Positions 1 through 9,110 of a stretch of 9,110 nt of DNA are shown here, piece after piece (within the stretch, counting starts at the first letter, position 1; each line of letters opens with the position of its first letter). A program made the position numbers and the translations under genes. The notes under the pieces are model-generated. The model did not search any database, had not been told where the DNA came from, and saw only the letters and a list, made by a program, of their open reading frames with translations. Where the stretch lies: IMG/VR virus record IMGVR_UViG_2537562017_000014, one strand, 5' to 3'. This stretch comes from a virus. Lineage: Duplodnaviria > Heunggongvirae > Uroviricota > Caudoviricetes.

Positions 1-562
1 TCAACTCGCTGAATTCTTTTCTCATTTGGGAAAGTAACTGCCGACGTACTGATTCAATTTCTGCTGTTTGAGCTCTCAAATATCTTGAGAAATCAAGTAG
101 TTCATCAGCTGTTTTGTTTTGGCTATTTATAAACGTAACAGGTTGCCCTGGCTTAGATATGAGAAAGAATTGATCAATTTTATCAAGTAATGGTGGAATT
201 ATTTGTTTCCATTCAGCCCATTCTTTTTCACGATGAAACTCCAGGCTGTGCTGACATGCTCTGAGTTGCTGTATATCAATCGCCCAGACCTCACTCTCAT
301 CGAGGCAATCTTTCCATTTGCTAATTACATTAATGTCAAATTTTTTGTTCGGTCGATAATCTTCTTTGGCGCGCGCTTCCAGTATAGAGGCAAGGCTACC
401 TGTATATTGCATCAAATTGGTAGATGCTCGGTTTACTAGCTCAGATATTCGATCTAGTTGAGTTGTTCTAATCTCAAGTGCTTTCTTTTTACGTTCATTT
501 CGTAAAGCAAAATATGCAGCAAGGCAGACTGCAGCAACTGTGGCTGCTGGTTGCATATTCAT
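1..562 (-). CDS. Hypothetical protein with N-terminal hydrophobic anchor; partial, 3' end runs off the left edge; AT-rich accessory (cargo) gene downstream of gpD
   Basis: Minus-strand frame is open from the ATG (complement of 560-562) to position 2; I checked every in-frame triplet by hand and found no stop. AGAGGA Shine-Dalgarno lies 8 nt upstream of that ATG. Translation starts MNMQPAATVAAVCLAAYFALRNERKKK, a 16-residue hydrophobic stretch followed by a basic cluster. Absent from the supplied ORF track, apparently because it has no stop inside the window. An alternative in-frame ATG at 584-586 lacks an SD. No family recognised. Confidence 0.6.
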   Translation of the reverse strand, partial: MNMQPAATVAAVCLAAYFALRNERKKKALEIRTTQLDRISELVNRASTNLMQYTGSLASILEARAKEDYRPNKKFDINVISKWKDCLDESEVWAIDIQQLRACQHSLEFHREKEWAEWKQIIPPLLDKIDQFFLISKPGQPVTFINSQNKTADELLDFSRYLRAQTAEIESVRRQLLSQMRKEFSEL

Positions 563-624
563 AACATGGATCCTCTGACATGGCATTTATGGGCGCTATT
601 TCAGCAGTAATCATTTGTGTGTAA

Positions 625-643
625 ATTTGTTTGCTACAAATTA
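625..643. promoter_or_regulatory. Candidate operator: perfect 7-bp inverted repeat AATTTGT-N5-ACAAATT, with a further direct ATTTGT copy at 613-618, in the 5' leader of the cargo ORF
   Basis: Read directly: 625-631 aatttgt, 632-636 ttgct, 637-643 acaaatt. Lies 60-80 bp upstream of the minus-strand ORF start at 562. A minus-strand -10-like hexamer TAGAAT (complement of 648-653) is adjacent, but the -35 is weak. Confidence 0.25.
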
Positions 644-756
644 ACATATTCTAATGTAAGGTACTTCTGATTTTGACACTTGGTAGGCTGTCAGATTGGT
701 TATGATTCTTGCTGTAGGCGCGTTAACAAATGTCAGGGCTAATGCATCTAAGTTGT

Positions 757-1857
757 TTACTCTGTTTCTGCTATCCATTCCGGGATTTTTGCTTCAAGCT
801 CAAGCTGAGTGGTAAAGCCGCTGTTGTCAATGGTGTGCTCGGCTTTTGCAATAATCCAGTCCTGATTGTCAATGTCACTTTTGAAGCCTGTCACCGTGCC
901 ATGCATTTCGGGATAGAGTTCTGCACGTCCACACGCCAGCGTGATGGAGAACGCTGCGGCTCCGCGTTGTAGCTGCTGCCACTTTGCCGCCGCTGCACGT
1001 CTTGCTGCCTGCTCGTTCTGATAAGTCTTGCGTAACACAAACACGTTGCCTTCCGCGCCTTCCATATAGTCGCCTTCCCGGCTGCTGCTTTTCTCCTTTT
1101 TCGGTTTGCGGCGTTTCACGTTGACTTTTTTCTTTTTCCCGTAATTAAGATCAAGCCAGTAGGCGCGTACACCCGTATACGCCTCGCGGTCAGCAATGCG
1201 AAACTGATGGCGATCGCCGCTGCTGCGTGTGATGGCAAACGATGGCAATGGTTTTCCCTGTGCGTTCACGCCACCGCCTGGCATGATGAATAACAGATTA
1301 CCGCTTTTTACCGTGGTGATTGCGCCCAGCATTTCCGCCATGCGCGTAAGGAAGGACATGTCGCTTTCTTCGGTCTGGTCGGCGTGGTCGATTTCGATAT
1401 CCATCAGCATTTCGCTGATTTGCGGTTTCAGGCCGTACCGGTGAGCGATAGCAGATACCACGCGCTCAACGGTCACATCATGCCAGGACACTTCACGTTT
1501 AACGTTAAATTCATCCCGAAAATCTGCGCTTCTGGCTGAAACAGTCAGCCTGTCCGGCGGACCTTCGTGAGCGATTTCATCAACAATGTAAGTGCCTTTT
1601 TCTGTCAGCGGTTCTCCTTTCCAGCCAATGAGAACCGTCAGGCGCGCGCCCCGTGGCGGTAGCTGCAACTGACCATCCGCATCATCCAGCGTGATGGTGA
1701 GCTGGTCCGCCTCAAATCCCCGGTTGTCGGTCAGTGACAGGCTCATCAGGCGCTCGGCCACGCCTGACAGCGTTTTACCCTCCGCGAGAATATCAAAATC
1801 CGGCATTTTCACGGGGTCTGTGCCCTGACTGAGCAATTGCATGGTGGTATCGGTCAT
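757..1857 (-). CDS. P2 gpD-like tail protein (late control gene D family)
   Basis: Translation carries the gpD-type organisation: LMSLSLTDNRGFEADQL, SWHD, a Lys/Arg-rich linker KKKKVNVKRRKPKKEK, EGDY...NVFVLRKTY and WQQLQRG...FSITLACGR. Start chosen at the ATG on the complement of 1855-1857 (MTDTTMQLL) because a GGGAGGG Shine-Dalgarno sits 5 nt upstream. The track's longer ORF to 1989 has no comparable signal. Stop is TAA on the complement of 757-759. Confidence 0.85.
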   Translation of the reverse strand: MTDTTMQLLSQGTDPVKMPDFDILAEGKTLSGVAERLMSLSLTDNRGFEADQLTITLDDADGQLQLPPRGARLTVLIGWKGEPLTEKGTYIVDEIAHEGPPDRLTVSARSADFRDEFNVKREVSWHDVTVERVVSAIAHRYGLKPQISEMLMDIEIDHADQTEESDMSFLTRMAEMLGAITTVKSGNLLFIMPGGGVNAQGKPLPSFAITRSSGDRHQFRIADREAYTGVRAYWLDLNYGKKKKVNVKRRKPKKEKSSSREGDYMEGAEGNVFVLRKTYQNEQAARRAAAAKWQQLQRGAAAFSITLACGRAELYPEMHGTVTGFKSDIDNQDWIIAKAEHTIDNSGFTTQLELEAKIPEWIAETE

Positions 1858-2014: not shown

Positions 2015-3193
2015 ATGAGTGAAACTCGTTTTCATGGTGCCCGTGTTACGGAAAATACCGACCTGGTAACAGCGATTAAGATGTTGATTCCAGGTTATCG
2101 GTATCGTGGCAACGGCGGATGATGCGGAGCGAGCTGTTCCCGCTGAACAAGCCCACACTGCTGACCCGCGTCAATGACGTGCTGGGAAAATGCGGACAAC
2201 GGGACGCTTTATCGTGCGCTTAAGGCCATCGCAGACCAGGTGAGCACAAAGGTGATCGTCGTTCGCGTGGCTGAACACAAAGAAGAAGACGGAAAGACGC
2301 AGGATCAACTGGTTATCGGTGGTTCTGAGGATGACGGCAGCTATACGGGGATGTATGCGCTGCTTGTTGCAGAGCAGGATGAAAGCATCGGATACCGTCC
2401 GCGTATTCTGGCCGCGCCGGAGCTGGACACGGAGGCGGTAACAAAATCCCTGTGCGTGATTGCGGGTAAACTGCGCGCGTTTGTGTATGCCTCATGTCAC
2501 GGCTGTAACACGATGGCTGAGGCGATTACCTACCGCCAGAAATTCAACGAACGTGAGGTGATGCTCTTATGGCCGGACTTCATCGCCTACAACCCGAAAA
2601 GTGGCAAAAACGAAACGTTCCCCGCGCCTGCCTATGCGTGCGGCCTTCGTGCGTACATTGACCATGAGCAGGGCTGGCACAAATCGCTGTCCAACGTTCC
2701 GGTTAAAAATGTGCTGGGGATGTCCAGGCATGTGTTCTGGTCGTTGCAGGCCGAAGACAGTGATGCCAACAGCCTCAACAACAAAGAAATCACGACCATT
2801 ATTCGTCGCAATGGGTTCCGCTTCTGGGGCAACCGCACACCGGAAACGAACGCCTACATCTTTGAGGTGTATACCCGAACCGCACAGGTGCTGGCTGATT
2901 CAATTGCGGAAGCGCAGTTTGAAACCATCGACAGTCCACTGACGCCTGCGAACGTGAAAGATGTTATCAGTGCCATCAGGGCAAAACTGGATTCACTGGT
3001 TACTGCCGGGAAACTGATTGGGGCGTCGTGCTGGTATGACGTGGTGGATAACGGCACCACGAATTTACGTCAGGGGCGCGTGCGTATTCGCTACAAATAT
3101 ACGCCTGTTCCCCCGCTGGAAGACATGGAGCTTTACCAGTCGTTTACTGATGAATTCTTTGGTCCCGCATTTGCGGTGCTGGGAGGTGCCTGA
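2015..3193 (+). pseudogene. P2 FI-like contractile tail sheath; 5' ~180 nt disrupted by three frame changes, reading frame intact from about 2192 to the stop
   Basis: ATG at 2015 with AAGGGG SD 8 nt upstream gives MSETRFHGARVTE, then a stop at 2120-2122. Sheath-like N-terminal motifs continue in other frames: VIGIVATADDAE (frame of 2094-2129), FPLNKPTLLT (from 2137), then GTLYRALKAIADQ in the long ORF 2174-3193. The long ORF has clear sheath motifs (WPDFIAYN, IRRNGFRFWGNRT, YKYTPVPPLED). Stop TGA at 3191-3193 overlaps the FII start. Confidence 0.75.
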
Positions 3194-3705
3194 TGGCTGT
3201 ACCAAAACATCTTCGCTTTTTTACGCTGTTTGTGGATGGTGAAAACGAAGTGGGTAAGGTGACGTCCGTCACTCTGCCTAAGCTGACGCGCAAAACCGAC
3301 AGCTACCGGGGTGGTGGCATGATGGGTGCGGTAAGTATTGATCTCGGTCTGGACGACTCCGCGCTTGATGCGAGCTTTGTCATGGGGGGCGCAGTTCGTG
3401 AGCTGTTCCTTAAGTATGGCGGCACGATTGACGGCACGCTGCTGCGTTTTGCGGGTGAATACTACACCGATGCAGAAAGCGACCTGTATGAAGTCGAAAT
3501 GCGCGGACGTGTGACGGAAATTGATATGGGGGAAGCCAAACAGGGCGAAGCCACATCACACACTTACGCCATTAAAAACACCTACTACAAGCTGAGTGTT
3601 AACGATCGCCCGTTGTGGGAGATTGACCTGCTGAACTTCATTTACCGGAAGGACGGCAAGGACATTGTGCCCGATCGCATCCGTTCCGCGCTTGGGCTTG
3701 GCTGA
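3193..3705 (+). CDS. P2 FII-like tail tube protein
   Basis: 170-aa ORF. ATG overlaps the FI stop (TGATG), suggesting translational coupling; GGGAGG SD 6 nt upstream. Translation MAVPKHLRFFTLFVDGEN...TLPKLTRKTDSYRGGGM matches the remembered P2 tube N-terminus pattern (PKLTRKTxxYRGGGM). Confidence 0.9.
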   Translation: MAVPKHLRFFTLFVDGENEVGKVTSVTLPKLTRKTDSYRGGGMMGAVSIDLGLDDSALDASFVMGGAVRELFLKYGGTIDGTLLRFAGEYYTDAESDLYEVEMRGRVTEIDMGEAKQGEATSHTYAIKNTYYKLSVNDRPLWEIDLLNFIYRKDGKDIVPDRIRSALGLG

Positions 3706-3759: not shown

Positions 3760-4125
3760 ATGAAAGAGACGAAAAACATCGATACCGAAAACACGGTAGT
3801 TACTGACACTGTGAAAGAAACCAGTGAGCGTGGCGTAAAACTTACCCAACCAATTGAGCGAGGCGGCGAAAAAATCACGTATGTGGAGATCACCGGGGCT
3901 ATTGAGCAGGCTGGATCTCTGCGAGATTTGTCGCTGTCTGATGTGCTGAATCTGAAAGCGGAATCCATGTTTACGCTGCTGTCACGCGTGACATCACCGC
4001 GACTGGATGAAGTGACGATCAAAAAAATGGCATCCCGTGACTTTATTCAGTTATGTGTGGTTGCCGTAAATTTTTTGAGCGGTGCGGACTCTGGCGGGAA
4101 GAACGAACAGGCGACGGAAGCCTGA
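3760..4125 (+). CDS. gpE-like tail assembly chaperone (zero-frame product)
   Basis: ATG at 3760 with AAGGAG SD (3747-3752) 7 nt upstream. Sits between tube and tape measure as in P2/lambda G-GT. Contains the slippery heptamer near its 3' end. Confidence 0.8.
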   Translation: MKETKNIDTENTVVTDTVKETSERGVKLTQPIERGGEKITYVEITGAIEQAGSLRDLSLSDVLNLKAESMFTLLSRVTSPRLDEVTIKKMASRDFIQLCVVAVNFLSGADSGGKNEQATEA

Positions 4126-4289
4126 TCACGGTTGTGTGCTTTGAGCACATAGAAGACTTTGTGGCGGATATTGCCGCCATTTTTAACTGGTCGCCCGCCG
4201 AAATCTTCATGATGACGCCCGGCGAAGTGGTTAGCTGGCGTGAGCGGGCGGCACTTCGCAGCGGGAATGCAGACAATGAAGACTCTTGA
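3760..4289 (+). CDS. gpE+E' fusion chaperone produced by programmed -1 frameshift (3760-4077 joined to 4077-4289)
   Basis: Slippery heptamer T TTT TTG at 4071-4077 is positioned X.XXY.YYZ in the E frame (codons AAT TTT TTG). The -1 frame is open from there to TGA at 4287-4289 and encodes FEHIEDFVADIAAIFNWSPAEIFMMTPGEVVSWRERAALRSGNA (track ORF 4053-4289), the conserved E' extension. Confidence 0.65.
4071..4077 (+). other. Programmed -1 ribosomal frameshift slippery site (TTTTTTG) of the E/E' chaperone pair
   Basis: Heptamer read directly from the sequence and in the correct register with the upstream ORF; the -1 frame downstream is open and conserved-looking. Confidence 0.7.
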
Positions 4290-7082
4290 TATCCGGGTCG
4301 CTTTCAGCGCCGTTGACAGGCTGACCCGGCCTGCCGAAAACGCCCGCCGCCTGATGGGGCAGTTTGGTGACTCCATCCAGCGAACGCAGGGGGCGATCAA
4401 AAATCTCGAGCGTCAGGCGCGATCATTTGAGCGCGCCCGTGACGCTGTCAGTAAAGCGGATGCGGGCATCGTGAAAGCACGACGCCAGCTTAACGCCCTT
4501 AATCAGTTACAACGCACGGGTACAGTGCTCAGCGAAAAACAACAAAAGCTGATGCAGCAGTTAAGCACCCGGCTTGAACGCCTGAATGAATCGCGCACAC
4601 GGGAAATTCAGAAAATGCGGGAACTTGGCGGAGAACTGAAACGCCACGGCATTTCCCTGACAGGCAGCGATAACACCATCCAGCAGGCCATCAGACGCAC
4701 CGAACAGTACAACAACCAGCTTGAACGCGAACGGCAGGCGCTTGCGCGTGTAACGCGGGCGCGTGAGCGGTATTCGCGCGCGCAGGAAACCGCGGGAAAA
4801 CTGAAAACAGGTGGTGCGCTGGCAATTGGTGCGGCAGCGGCTGGCGGCTATGCTGCCGGGCGTTTTTTGCAGCCTGCGATCGGGTTCGGCAAAGAGATGT
4901 CCCGCGTTCAGGCACTGACGAGAATCGACAAAAACAGCCCGCAGTTTAAGGCGCTGCGTGAGCAGGCGTTAAAACTTGGCTCTGAAACACAGTTTACTGC
5001 GAGTGATGCCGCCAGTGGGCAGAGCTTTCTGGCAATGGCTGGTTTTACTCCGCAGGCCATTCAGGCCGCATTGCCCGGTGTTCTTAATATGGCGCTGGCA
5101 GGTGGCGTCGAACTCGGCGAGACGGCTGATATAGGCTCCAATATCCTCACACAGTTCAATCTGACAGCCGATCAAATGGACCGGGTTGGCGATACGCTGA
5201 CAGCGGCATTCACCCGGACCAATACTGATTTACGCGCGCTGGGCGAAACCATGAAGTATACCGGTCCGGTTGCCGCAAAACTTGGTATCAGTCTTGAAGA
5301 AGCGACGGCCATGGCCGGGATGCTTGCCAATAATGGTCTTCGCGGAAGCGATGCTGGTACGGCCATGCGCGCAAGTCTGTCCCGCCTAGCATCACCGCCA
5401 AAAGCTGCGGCTGATGCGCTGAAAGAGCTGGGGGTGTCAGTTGCTGACGCCAGAGGCAAAATGCGCCCGATGGAGGATGTGCTGCTTGATCTCTATAAGG
5501 CGACACAAAAATACGGACAGGTGGACCAGGTTTCCTTCTTCAAGGACATCGCCGGAGAAGAGGCGTTCGTTGGTTTGCAGACGCTTGTTGCGGCGGCTGG
5601 TTCAGGAGAGCTGCAAAAACTGACCAGAGAATTGCAGGGGGCAAGGGGAGAGGCCGATCGCGTCGCAAAAGTAATGGCCGATAATCTTGATGGGGACCTG
5701 AAAAATCTCGACAGCGCATGGGAAGGTCTTCGTATTCGCATCAGTGATCTGGTTGACGGTCCGCTGCGTTCTGTCACCAGTGGCTCACGCGGGTGCTTGA
5801 AAAAATCACCTCGCTGGCGCAGGCCCATCCGGTACTGACACGCCAGCTACTGATAGCAGGCGGTGCGTTGCTGGCAATGACTGCAACGATTGGCTCGTTG
5901 TCGCTGGTTATTGGGGTGCTTTACGGAAAGCTGGCCACCCTGCGTCTTGGTTTTGACATTCTTACCCGGTCAATGAATGTCGTCAGGGTGTTGCCTGCGC
6001 TGTGGGGAATGCTGACGGGTTCCGTTTCTTTGCTGGGAGGCGCTATCGGAGCGCTGTTCAGTCCGGTTGGTCTTATCGTGGCTGCGCTTGCCGGAGCTGC
6101 CGTTCTTATCTGGAAATACTGGGATCCCATCAGGGCATTTTTTGCCGGGGTGTTCAGCGGGATTATGGAAAGGCTGACCCCGTTGCGCGAAACCTTTGAA
6201 CGGTTTGGTCCTGTTTTTGACGCAATCGGAAGCGGGATCAGCCAGGTGTTTAACTGGTTTAAATCGCTGTTGTCACCGATGGAGTCCAGCAAGGAAACGC
6301 TGGATAAATGTACCAGTGCTGGCGAGATATTCGGTAACGTTCTTGGTGGTGCGTTACAACTTGTTCTGACACCTGCAAAAATGCTACTGGATACGCTGGC
6401 GTGGATACTTGAAAAACTTGGCGTCCTTCCGGATGAAGCGGAAAGGGCGCGCAAGAAAATCGAAGACGCACAGCGTGCGGCCATTCTTCAGGACAAGGTT
6501 GCCTTACTTCAGGGGGACCTGGCGAAAATCAATCCGCCGAAGCCTGTGGAAAATGGCAATGGCACCGGAGGTGATAAACCCAAAGACAACAAACCGCTCA
6601 CAGACAGCAATACCGGGACGCTACGCAGACTCAGCAAAATTGCTGATAACACAGGTAAGCTGGTTGATGAGACGAAAAAACGCATTGGCCCCGGCGATAT
6701 TGTCTTTAAGAACCTGCCCCGCGCACTTGCTGTTCGTGGGGAGTGGCAGGAGCGGAAGATTGCGCAGGTCAGTAAGCCTGCCCCCGCAATTAATATCACC
6801 CCCGTGGTCCCGGCTCCGCTGCCTCCGGCGCTGGTCCCTGTTGTTGCGGCCAGCTCCCGCCCGGTGGCGGAGGCCATACGATCTCCAGTGGCATCAGTTC
6901 CTGTAACTTCCCGTAACCGGGAGCCTGTTGCCTCCGGATTTGGTGGTGAAATTCATGTTCATCTGCATAACGTTGTTACGCAGAATCCCCGCGAACTGGC
7001 GAAACTGGTCGGTGAAATGGTCAGGGCAGAAATGGAACGGCGCGCTCGTGCCGGGCGTGGCAGTTTTTACGATAAAGATTGA
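4267..7082 (+). pseudogene. gpT-like tail tape measure protein, split into two overlapping ORFs by a frame change near 5757-5800
   Basis: Track ORFs 4240-5838 and 5793-7082 are in different frames and overlap by 45 nt. The first is coiled-coil/Ala-rich and the second has hydrophobic glycine-rich helices, both typical of tape measure proteins. The second frame opens only at 5757 and its apparent start is GTG. First in-frame ATG after the E' overlap is 4267 (alternative 4276). Confidence 0.7.
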
Positions 7083-7094
7083 GGAGTCATGGCC

Positions 7095-7583
7095 ATGATG
7101 ATGATCTACGGCATGTTTGTTTTTGAGCTGCGCACGTTGCCGCATCAGCAGTTACAGCAAAACAAAAGCTGGCGGCATGTGAAAAATGAACGCGTTAACC
7201 GTTCAGCAAGCTGGCAGTATATCGGTGCAGGTGATGATCGCATCGTTCTTTCTGGTGTGCTTTATCCTGAAATTACAGGTGGCGAAGTGTCGCTGTCGCT
7301 GCTGACCACGCAGGCGTATACAGGACGCCCCTGGCCTCTGATTGATAGTGTCGGGCAGATTTACGGCATGTATGTGCTGACTGAAACGAATACGACCCGT
7401 TCCGAGTTTGATCGCTACGGTAAGGCGAAAAAGATAGAATTTTCACTGACCCTTGAACGCTGTGATGAGGATTTGCGGGAGCGCCTGCAATCCTCATCAT
7501 TCAGCGATATGCTGTCCGGCTTCAAAGATAAGGTGACATCATCTCTTAACAGCGCGGCCAGTTCAGTTAAAGGGCTGTTCTGA
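7095..7583 (+). CDS. P2 gpU-like tail protein
   Basis: GAGGAG SD at 7081-7086 is 8 nt before the ATG at 7095 (MMMIYGMFVFEL); the ATG at 7089 is only 2 nt from the SD. Position directly after T. Stop TGA at 7581-7583. Confidence 0.85.
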   Translation: MMMIYGMFVFELRTLPHQQLQQNKSWRHVKNERVNRSASWQYIGAGDDRIVLSGVLYPEITGGEVSLSLLTTQAYTGRPWPLIDSVGQIYGMYVLTETNTTRSEFDRYGKAKKIEFSLTLERCDEDLRERLQSSSFSDMLSGFKDKVTSSLNSAASSVKGLF

Positions 7584-7594
7584 TTTAACACAAA

Positions 7595-7630
7595 AACCGC
7601 TAATGGCCAGATTAGCGGTTATTTTGTTTT
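7595..7630. terminator. Bidirectional rho-independent terminator shared by convergent gpU and invertase genes
   Basis: Perfect 10-bp stem AACCGCTAAT (7595-7604) / ATTAGCGGTT (7611-7620) with 6-nt loop GGCCAG. Followed on the plus strand by ATTTTGTTTT and on the minus strand by TTTTTGTGTT. Confidence 0.6.
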
Positions 7631-8206
7631 CTGACTCTTCTCTATTGTTCCGCTTGATTCTCCTGCGGGGTGGTAACGATAAATCGTCGATGTACCAATG
7701 CCGTAAATTATTGCCAGTTGTTTTCTGTCGTGACCGTTTTTAATCAGCCTTGCTATTTGCTCATGCTGTTCTTTTGTCAGCTTCGGTCGACGTCCGCCTG
7801 TGCGCCCCCGTGCGCGCGCTGCCGCCAGTCCGGCCAGTGTACGTTCAACAATTAATTCACGTTCCATTTCAGCCAGGGCACCCATCACGTGGAAGAAAAA
7901 ACGCCCCATTGGAGAAGATGTATCTATGCTGTCGGTCAGACTGCGAAAATTAATCCCTCGCTCCCGTAGTTCCCCGACGAGAGAAATCAGATGTTTCATG
8001 CTTCGCCCGAGGCGATCCAGTTTCCAGACAACCAGCGTGTCACCTTTTTGAAGACGCTTTAAAGCGCGTTTTAATCCCGGTCGGTCTGTCTTTGTCCCGC
8101 TTAATTTATCTTCAAATATTTGTTCACATCCTGCACAAACAAGAGCGTTTCGTTGCAGGTCTGTATTCTGGTCATTTGTTGATACCCTTACATAGCCAAT
8201 CAGCAC
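7619..8206 (-). CDS. Serine DNA invertase (Gin/Pin/Hin/Cin family resolvase-invertase)
   Basis: Translation LIGYVRVSTNDQNTDLQRNAL...DTLVVWKLDRLGRSMKHLI...FFFHVMGALAEMERELI has the catalytic Ser motif (VRVSTNDQ) and a C-terminal HTH (GTSTIYRY), as in Gin/Pin. The track start at 8224 is a TTG; I prefer the GTG on the complement of 8204-8206, with GGGAGA SD 6 nt upstream, which gives the family's usual MLIGYVRVS N-terminus. Confidence 0.9.
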   Translation of the reverse strand: MLIGYVRVSTNDQNTDLQRNALVCAGCEQIFEDKLSGTKTDRPGLKRALKRLQKGDTLVVWKLDRLGRSMKHLISLVGELRERGINFRSLTDSIDTSSPMGRFFFHVMGALAEMERELIVERTLAGLAAARARGRTGGRRPKLTKEQHEQIARLIKNGHDRKQLAIIYGIGTSTIYRYHPAGESSGTIEKSQKTK

Positions 8207-8260
8207 GCTGAATCTCCCGTCCAAAAGCGTAAATCATGCCATGCAGGTCAGAAACAGCCA

Positions 8261-8286
8261 TTATCTAAAACCTCGGTTTACAAGAA
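8261..8286. other. Invertase crossover site (gix/pix/hix-like, 26 bp)
   Basis: TTATCTAAAACCTCGGTTTACAAGAA; differs at two positions from the Mu gixL sequence as I remember it (TTATCCAAAACCTCGGTTTACAGGAA). Lies 55 bp upstream of the invertase start and at the 5' end of the fibre cassette reading frame. Confidence 0.8.
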
Positions 8287-9110
8287 ACGGTAAATCAGGC
8301 TTCTGGCGCATTACAGAAAAACCAGAACGGCGCAGATATTCCCGATAAAAAACTATTCCTGCGTAATATCGGCACAACAAATTCAACAACCATGTCTTTT
8401 AGTGGTGGTGCTGGATGGTTCAAACTGGCAACTGTAACAATGCCACAAGCCAGTTCCGTGGTTTACATAAGTCTGATTGGTGGTGCTGGATATAATGTTA
8501 ATCCCCATACGGCAATAATAAAATTATTACCGATACTGGCTGTGGAACTATTCATCTTGCAGGTTGCGTTATTGAGGTTATGGGTAATAAAGGTGCCATG
8601 ACCATCCGTGTAACCACCCCGAGCACTTCCAGCGGTGGCGGAACTACTAATGCACAATTTACTTATATAAACCACGGTGGAGATTATGCGCCAGGCTGGC
8701 GGCGTGACTACAGTACCAAAAATCAGCAGCCTGCATTTGCTTTAGGGCAGACAGGAAGCACTGTTGGAAATGACAAAGCTGTTGGATGGAACTCAAATAG
8801 CGGCGTTTATAATGCGACTATTAGTGGAGCGTCAACATTGATTCTTCACTTTAATATGAATGCGGGGAGTTGCCCGGCGGTTCAGTTCCGTGTGAATTAT
8901 AAGAACGGCGGTATTTATTATCGTTCAGCGCGAGATGGTTATGGATTTGAGGCTGACTGGTCAGAGTTTTATACCACAACACGCAAGCCATCAGCAGGAG
9001 ATGTTGGTGCATATACCAAAGCCGAATCAGATTCTCGCTATGTACGAGATATTCGCCTGGGCACACGTGTTGTTCAGACTATGCAAAAAGGCGTGATGTA
9101 TGAGAAATCA
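8269..9110 (+). CDS. Alternative tail-fibre C-terminal variable cassette (promoterless; partial, continues past right edge); frame change near 8500
   Basis: The frame opens at 8269 inside the crossover site and has no plausible start or SD, as expected for a cassette expressed only after inversion fuses it to a constant fibre N-terminus. Translation NLGLQETVNQ...GADIPDKKLFLRNIG...SGGAGWFKLATVTMPQASSVVYISLIGGAGYNVN, then in another frame from 8502: PYGNNKIITDTG...GWRRDYSTKNQQ...AYTKAESDSRYV, which is fibre-like. A 14-bp codon-aligned direct repeat (8403-8416, 8478-8491) encodes GGAGW/GGAGY. Confidence 0.6.

Follow-up and report, generated by a model that had tools for sequence, protein, structure and literature searches.

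The stretch of DNA analysed here (the window; 9,110 nucleotides) covers the tail module of a P2-like prophage (Peduoviridae, Gemsvirus-like) and, by exact protein match, is the entire contig APWY01000074.1 of GCA_000358895.1, a 2013 draft assembly of the ETEC Escherichia coli isolate 178200. On the reverse strand, positions 757 to 1857 encode a gpD-like late control/tail protein (PF05954) of the 366-aa type, which marks the window as belonging to the pgsA-linked prophage type. The genes that follow lie on the forward strand, beginning with a tail sheath gene (2015 to 3193) that appears split into a 35-aa ORF (2015-2122) and a 339-aa ORF (2174-3193), and a tail tube gene (3193 to 3705; PF04985), annotated in relatives as "major tail tube protein". 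Next comes a tail assembly chaperone pair analogous to P2 E/E+E' (3760 to 4289), in which an ORF at 3760-4125 (phrog_103, tail) is continued in the -1 frame to 4289, where the PF06528 (Phage_P2_GpE) domain is found. A slippery heptamer, T TTT TTG, lies within the first of these ORFs at 4071-4077 and, from its motif and its position just upstream of the tape measure gene, would be the programmed -1 frameshift expected of such a module. The tail tape measure gene T itself (4276 to 7082; the analogue of P2 gpT, with a TP901-type core) is annotated in relatives at the same position as a single 2,808-nt gene, and is followed by a gpU-like tail protein gene (7095 to 7583; PF06995).

At 7619 to 8206, on the reverse strand, lies a DNA invertase gene (PF00239 and PF02796; annotated as DNA invertase in phage 500465-2), which adjoins an invertible tail-fibre segment, and the end of the window (the 7619-9110 region) falls inside that segment. 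The corresponding contig of E. coli P0304777.12 (AQAI01000033.1, hereafter L003) runs through the segment at its positions 13338-17748 into a second, inverted copy of the invertase and the 3' end of gpU, which resembles assembly via both orientations of the invertible segment. At the other end, between ogr and D, a 217-aa ORF on the reverse strand (window 1-562; complete at 2778-3431 of the draft contig AQAS01000044.1, hereafter L086) found no match in the PADLOC, PHROGs or Pfam scans; the pgsA-side prophage type has it and the raiA-linked type lacks it. In other prophages this locus is occupied by an unrelated 384-aa ORF (231-1385 in NZ_CP196259.1, hereafter L001), and the ogr-D interval looks like a variable cargo spot. 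L001 is a complete genome and served as the reference; its gpD-like gene (1516-2357) lacks one base that is present both in the window (1860) and in phage 500465-2, and the annotation there gives a shorter CDS of 789 nt and a pseudogene fragment. The base at window position 1860 is also missing from L003.

Within T, the reading frame of the deposited sequence switches between 5757 and 5838, as a first-pass annotation made from the letters alone had stated, and both frames could be located there. The upstream frame (positions equal to 1 modulo 3) runs from the T start to a TGA at 5836-5838, ending in DLVDGPLRSVTSGSRGCLKKSPRWRRPIRY and the stop codon, and the second frame (0 modulo 3) opens at 5757, after a TGA that ends at 5756, reads QWLTRVLEKITSLAQAHPVL and continues to 7082, so that both frames are open throughout 5757 to 5838 on the forward strand. 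As deposited, T thus consists of two ORFs, 4276-5838 (520 aa) and 5793-7082 (429 aa), the latter being the mechanical ORF that had been counted as a further 429 codons of tape-measure-like sequence. The same annotation had pictured an intact T as one continuous ORF from about 4267 to 7082; relatives do carry T in one frame, but in the annotated ones it begins at the ATG at 4276 and not at 4267.

Alignment to intact relatives maps the missing base to the junction 5777/5778, inside the ACCAG motif (5776-5780) near which a single-base deletion had been suspected. This junction is the third position of Thr codon 501, for which most relatives have ACG and related drafts ACA; the window reads GTCAC-CAGTGG where relatives read GTCACGCAGTGG (GTCAC-G-CAGTGG), and the site without the base has the sequence GTCACCAGTGG. 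When the window was aligned over its full length with L001 and a second relative (L002), the comparison with intact T genes that the first-pass annotation had proposed as a check, this one base was the lone gap in T. The overlap also contains a run of six A residues at 5799-5804, phased as TTG AAA AAA TCA in the upstream frame.

Inserting one base at the junction restores a T ORF of 2,808 nt and 935 codons without an internal stop. The repaired protein differs from WP_001739535.1, the T protein of E. coli AH20J067, by two substitutions (A344T and N768K). It matches the tape measure core model TIGR01760 over residues 190-537 (6.9e-86, 288.4 bits; curated cut-off, 28.8 bits), a match that spans the break at residue 501, and PF10145 over residues 228-427 (2.5e-56, 191.2 bits; curated cut-off, 33.2 bits), the latter domain having also been matched on the 520-aa N-terminal part in the precomputed annotation. 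These profile scores, together with a location flanked by the chaperone pair and the gpU-like gene that is collinear with intact relatives, assign T to the tape measure family, and the gene is an ordinary example from a prophage family that is very common. None of three repaired full-length T variants had an exact match in a collection of 15 billion proteins; therefore, no clean assembly of the window's exact combination of T alleles is on record, which fits a chimeric consensus but is no proof of it alone.

The intact form of the gene is widespread. Homologous T genes occur in 1,375 of 5,426 complete E. coli genomes, and the two window ORFs are jointly collinear with one protein present at more than 1,300 places in these genomes, which is far beyond chance. 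An intact in-frame 31-mer across the site was found at 1,376 places in 1,259 of the 5,426 genomes, and the deletion-bearing 30-mer had zero occurrences in the same set (n = 5,426); a deletion-bearing 28-mer was likewise found nowhere in IMG/VR, the GTDB representative genomes or the JGI metagenomes. In the fetched set, the T site is G in 82 of 82 other relatives, with invariant neighbours, and the base is missing only in the window and in L003. Three further sequences read A there: L086, the draft contig AQAR01000083.1 (hereafter L087) and L088. The A allele also occurs in 4 of the 5,426 complete genomes, every time inside an annotated tape measure gene, and in the one of these that was fetched, E. 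coli M8, T is an intact 2,802-nt ORF. Since ACA still specifies Thr, the change is synonymous, and A is a natural variant, albeit a rare one. Both L086 and L087 read GTCACACAGTGG at this site, and their T ORFs (697 and 772 aa, respectively) cross it unbroken, so that the site is variable within the lineage. We had also considered the T site as the odd one out among the dropped bases, invariant in 82 relatives and on that ground favouring a real mutation, and this view was overturned by the A allele in the related drafts.

The history of the assemblies bears on how such a gap is to be read. The 520-aa shortened T product was found in one other assembly only, that of P0304777.12 (L003), and a shortened 148-aa gpU, arising from a dropped base in P0304777.12, is common to two further assemblies, AQAR01000083.1 (L087) and AQAS01000044.1 (L086). 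The Bangladeshi ETEC series that includes the P0304777 isolates was sequenced at IGS (paired-end Illumina HiSeq2000, >200x), with Celera Assembler as the assembler (PMC4462620); in a sister study, the same centre combined 100-bp HiSeq reads with this assembler, again for ETEC from Bangladesh (PMC5469772). The strain series is listed in PMC4309559, and isolates with all-number names of the 178200 kind belong to the same hospital collection (PMC4462620; PMC5469772; PMC4309559). The P0304777 isolates have been reported to be clonal (PMC4462620). From their identical junction sequence and neighbouring accession numbers, AQAR and AQAS are probably sibling isolates of the P0304777 series.

Two prophage types can be told apart in these drafts. 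L003 and L087 share the same junction between raiA/bamD and the prophage, identical over 4,068 bp, and in both a methylase and a D of 369 aa accompany the raiA flank. This junction identity is the basis for treating L087 and L003 as assemblies of the same clone, a sibling status taken from sequence and not from strain names. L086 represents the other type: its chromosomal flank is that of the pgsA side, its D is 366 aa long, and the additional 217-aa ORF separates ogr from D. Window positions 1-1120 are identical to L086. Markers of both types are present in 178200, namely the pgsA-side window and, on another contig, the raiA-type methylase ENG81972.1, with one tail module seen; this isolate appears to carry two closely related P2-like prophages, as P0304777-type isolates do. 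A true pseudogene should be reproducible among assemblies of the same clone, but at the T site L087 and L086 read A and keep T open.

The missing base in T is one of many. The sheath gene of the window lacks a further six single bases, after 2079, 2093, 2128, 2130/1, 2195/6 and 2200/3, with a net change of -6 that restores the frame, and all six coincide with differences between L086 (C, C, C, A) and L087 (T, T, T, G, A, T). The split of the sheath gene is the same class of artefact as that of T. In P0304777.12 (L003), the sheath gene is intact and six other bases are missing, in T and U. Altogether, the window, L003, L086 and L087 have 7, 7, 12 and 11 single-base drops, respectively, which overlap partially and amount to 37 drops at 26 sites in 5.6 kb. 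The drops are confined to variable columns: apart from the T site, 22 of the 25 dropped sites fall exactly on columns that are polymorphic in the population (defined against 82 relatives), and the remaining three lie beside such a column, where the alignment is ambiguous. With polymorphic columns making up 25.8% of the background, this enrichment has P = 1.1e-10. The T site fits the same class of dropped bases because related drafts carry A there, as against G elsewhere. Single-base losses thus fall where the repeat copies differ, which is the pattern of a collapsed repeat.

A collapsed repeat would also give different errors in different assemblies of related isolates, and the drops are indeed not reproduced from one draft to the next. 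At 79 variable sites, the four contigs show two alleles and gaps in finely interleaved mixes, and L003 and L087 have lost different bases and call different alleles at dozens of sites, despite their shared 4,068-bp junction. Since the isolates are reported to be clonal (PMC4462620), this interleaved pattern of alleles and gaps could not be their real sequence. The T site is ordered in one respect, with the gap tracking an X-type haplotype patch at 5831-6054 (two contigs) and A tracking the Y-type patch (two contigs), and within this patch the window has no mixed calls. A contig from another draft, IMGVR_UViG_2529293067_000016 (L005), has ten single-base deletions, all on polymorphic columns (L001 2128-2248 and 3054); therefore, the artefact may be widespread in that generation of draft assemblies.

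The first-pass annotation had left the choice between a pseudogenising indel and a sequencing error, and the evidence favours error, more precisely one made by the assembly consensus where two prophage copies differ (G/A). We consider it very probable that the frame change in T arose in this way in the draft assembly and is not a property of the DNA. On this reading, 178200 would have two prophages, one beside raiA/bamD and the other on the pgsA side with the extra 217-aa ORF between ogr and D, whose tail modules would be about 99% identical, so that 100-bp reads of both copies would have been assembled together as a single contig. Wherever the copies differ, the Celera consensus would then contain either of the two alleles or lack the base altogether. 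In the T column, one copy would carry G, as in nearly all relatives, and the other the rare synonymous A, and loss of the base from the consensus would make an intact 935-codon T read as a pair of 520 and 429 codons. The likely route of the loss is that the mismatch was laid out as two half-gapped columns, both of which were voted out. The clean patch at 5831-6054 may have escaped through the error thresholds for read overlaps, which would exclude divergent reads; reads covering only the isolated difference at 5778 would have been merged, and reads entering the dense patch would have been too different. In the four related drafts, the T site reads gap, gap, A and A, with G directly observed in none of the four, and the other copy in 178200 presumably carries G, giving a mixed G/A column in this isolate. 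We had also considered that ambiguity codes were stripped from the record, an idea that is unnecessary because the window is the deposited contig, and which is indistinguishable from gap-voting without the assembler's output.

The alternative in which the DNA itself has changed is that a real 1-bp deletion inactivates T in the X-type copy, was inherited by 178200 and the P0304777 lineage, and is accompanied by a second copy with A. Such a deletion would explain why the gap is common to two independent assemblies (the window and L003), why it follows the X-type haplotype at 5831-6054 while Y-type contigs read A, and why the T column is an invariant G in the wider population, unlike most dropped sites. 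However, it would have to strike precisely where the other copy has a rare SNP (A in 4 of 5,426 genomes); with about 60 of the 2,808 T positions differing between the copies, this coincidence amounts to about 2% or less, and the same contigs have 36 other drops at inter-copy differences. Single-base deletions outside homopolymer runs are rare mutations, and the k-mer with the deletion was found in no other collection searched. We regard a real deletion as decidedly unlikely. In another version, one copy would truly have lost the base and would survive through trans complementation by the other T or through low-level slippage on the A6 run, which we consider very unlikely; -1 slippage at 5799-5804 would give a near-normal T with only 9 residues different. 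A deletion arising from the local repeats (CTGCGT/ACGCAG as a quasi-palindrome, or TCACGC, which occurs twice, as a direct repeat) found no support, since the missing base destroys the palindrome instead of perfecting it.

The same repeat could be invoked at the level of the reads, as a systematic Illumina error near the inverted repeat CTGCGT...ACGCAG that involves no difference between copies. A 6-bp inverted repeat does surround the intact site, CTGCGTTCTGTCACGCAG, and the gap is common to two assemblies of one centre. However, Illumina errors are overwhelmingly substitutions, L086 and L087, with the same local sequence, call the base, as do the 80 IMG/VR relatives retrieved, and the A allele makes a heterogeneous column that is already a sufficient cause; a read-level error is hardly credible. 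Least probable of all, to the point of being negligible, is a functional T in two frames, whether through a programmed -1 frameshift, through slippage on the six A residues at 5799-5804 or through synthesis of two polypeptides. The required shift is -1 and an A6 run (TTG AAA AAA TCA) lies in the overlap, but the upstream-frame codons of 5757-5838 contain no canonical X XXY YYZ heptamer, T is in a single frame at 1,376 places, where the A6 run is read in frame as GAA AAA, and the break lies inside the conserved TIGR01760 core (residues 190-537). The programmed frameshift known for this module maps to the chaperone gene, at 4071-4077, upstream of T. Nor is a two-frame layout conserved, as the 82 other fetched relatives all carry the base and the deletion-bearing 30-mer occurs nowhere in the complete E. 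coli genomes. The earlier view that tape measure genes have no known programmed frameshift agrees with the relatives, which use one continuous T ORF, and with an overlap free of canonical slippery heptamers.

If the frame change is a consensus error at a merged G/A column, it is biologically without consequence, and T of this prophage is most likely ordinary and intact. Its significance is as a warning on data quality, since bases dropped from merged repeats have produced falsely split genes (T, sheath and U) in GenBank, among them ENG87234.1 with ENG87237.1, ENE63439.1 with ENE63440.1 and the 148-aa gpU entries. The four related Celera-assembled ETEC drafts of 178200, P0304777.12, AQAR and AQAS, as well as at least one IMG/VR contig (L005), have drops wherever merged copies differ. 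Surveys of prophage decay, pseudogenes or recoding that use these assemblies would score such false splits as real.

Comparison with known systems places both the gene and the error. Phage 500465-2 (Peduoviridae, Gemsvirus; T = YP_009949284.1) has T-gene DNA 97.4% identical to the window, and the AH20J067 prophage (WP_001739535.1), with 99.3% identity, is the closest among E. coli prophages; both share the gene order of the window, D (reverse), sheath, tube, chaperone pair, T, U and invertase (reverse). T of 500465-2 and WP_001739535.1 is 935 aa long, equal to the repaired T, and the deposited window differs by having one base less at codon 501. Relative to the TP901 core (TIGR01760) and PF10145 (PhageMin_Tail), the repaired T shows no difference, whereas the deposited sequence is cut at residue 501, inside the 190-537 core match. 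The -1 frameshift of tail assembly chaperones, as in lambda G/GT and P2 E/E+E', is found in the window at its expected place upstream of T, but it concerns another gene and another site, and the T junction has neither a heptamer nor a conserved two-frame layout. The closest parallel to the junction is the class of consensus errors at collapsed repeats in short-read drafts, in which, likewise, a multi-copy element is merged, errors fall at differences between the copies and false frameshifts result; the present case differs from that class in general in that the base is omitted instead of being miscalled or ambiguous.
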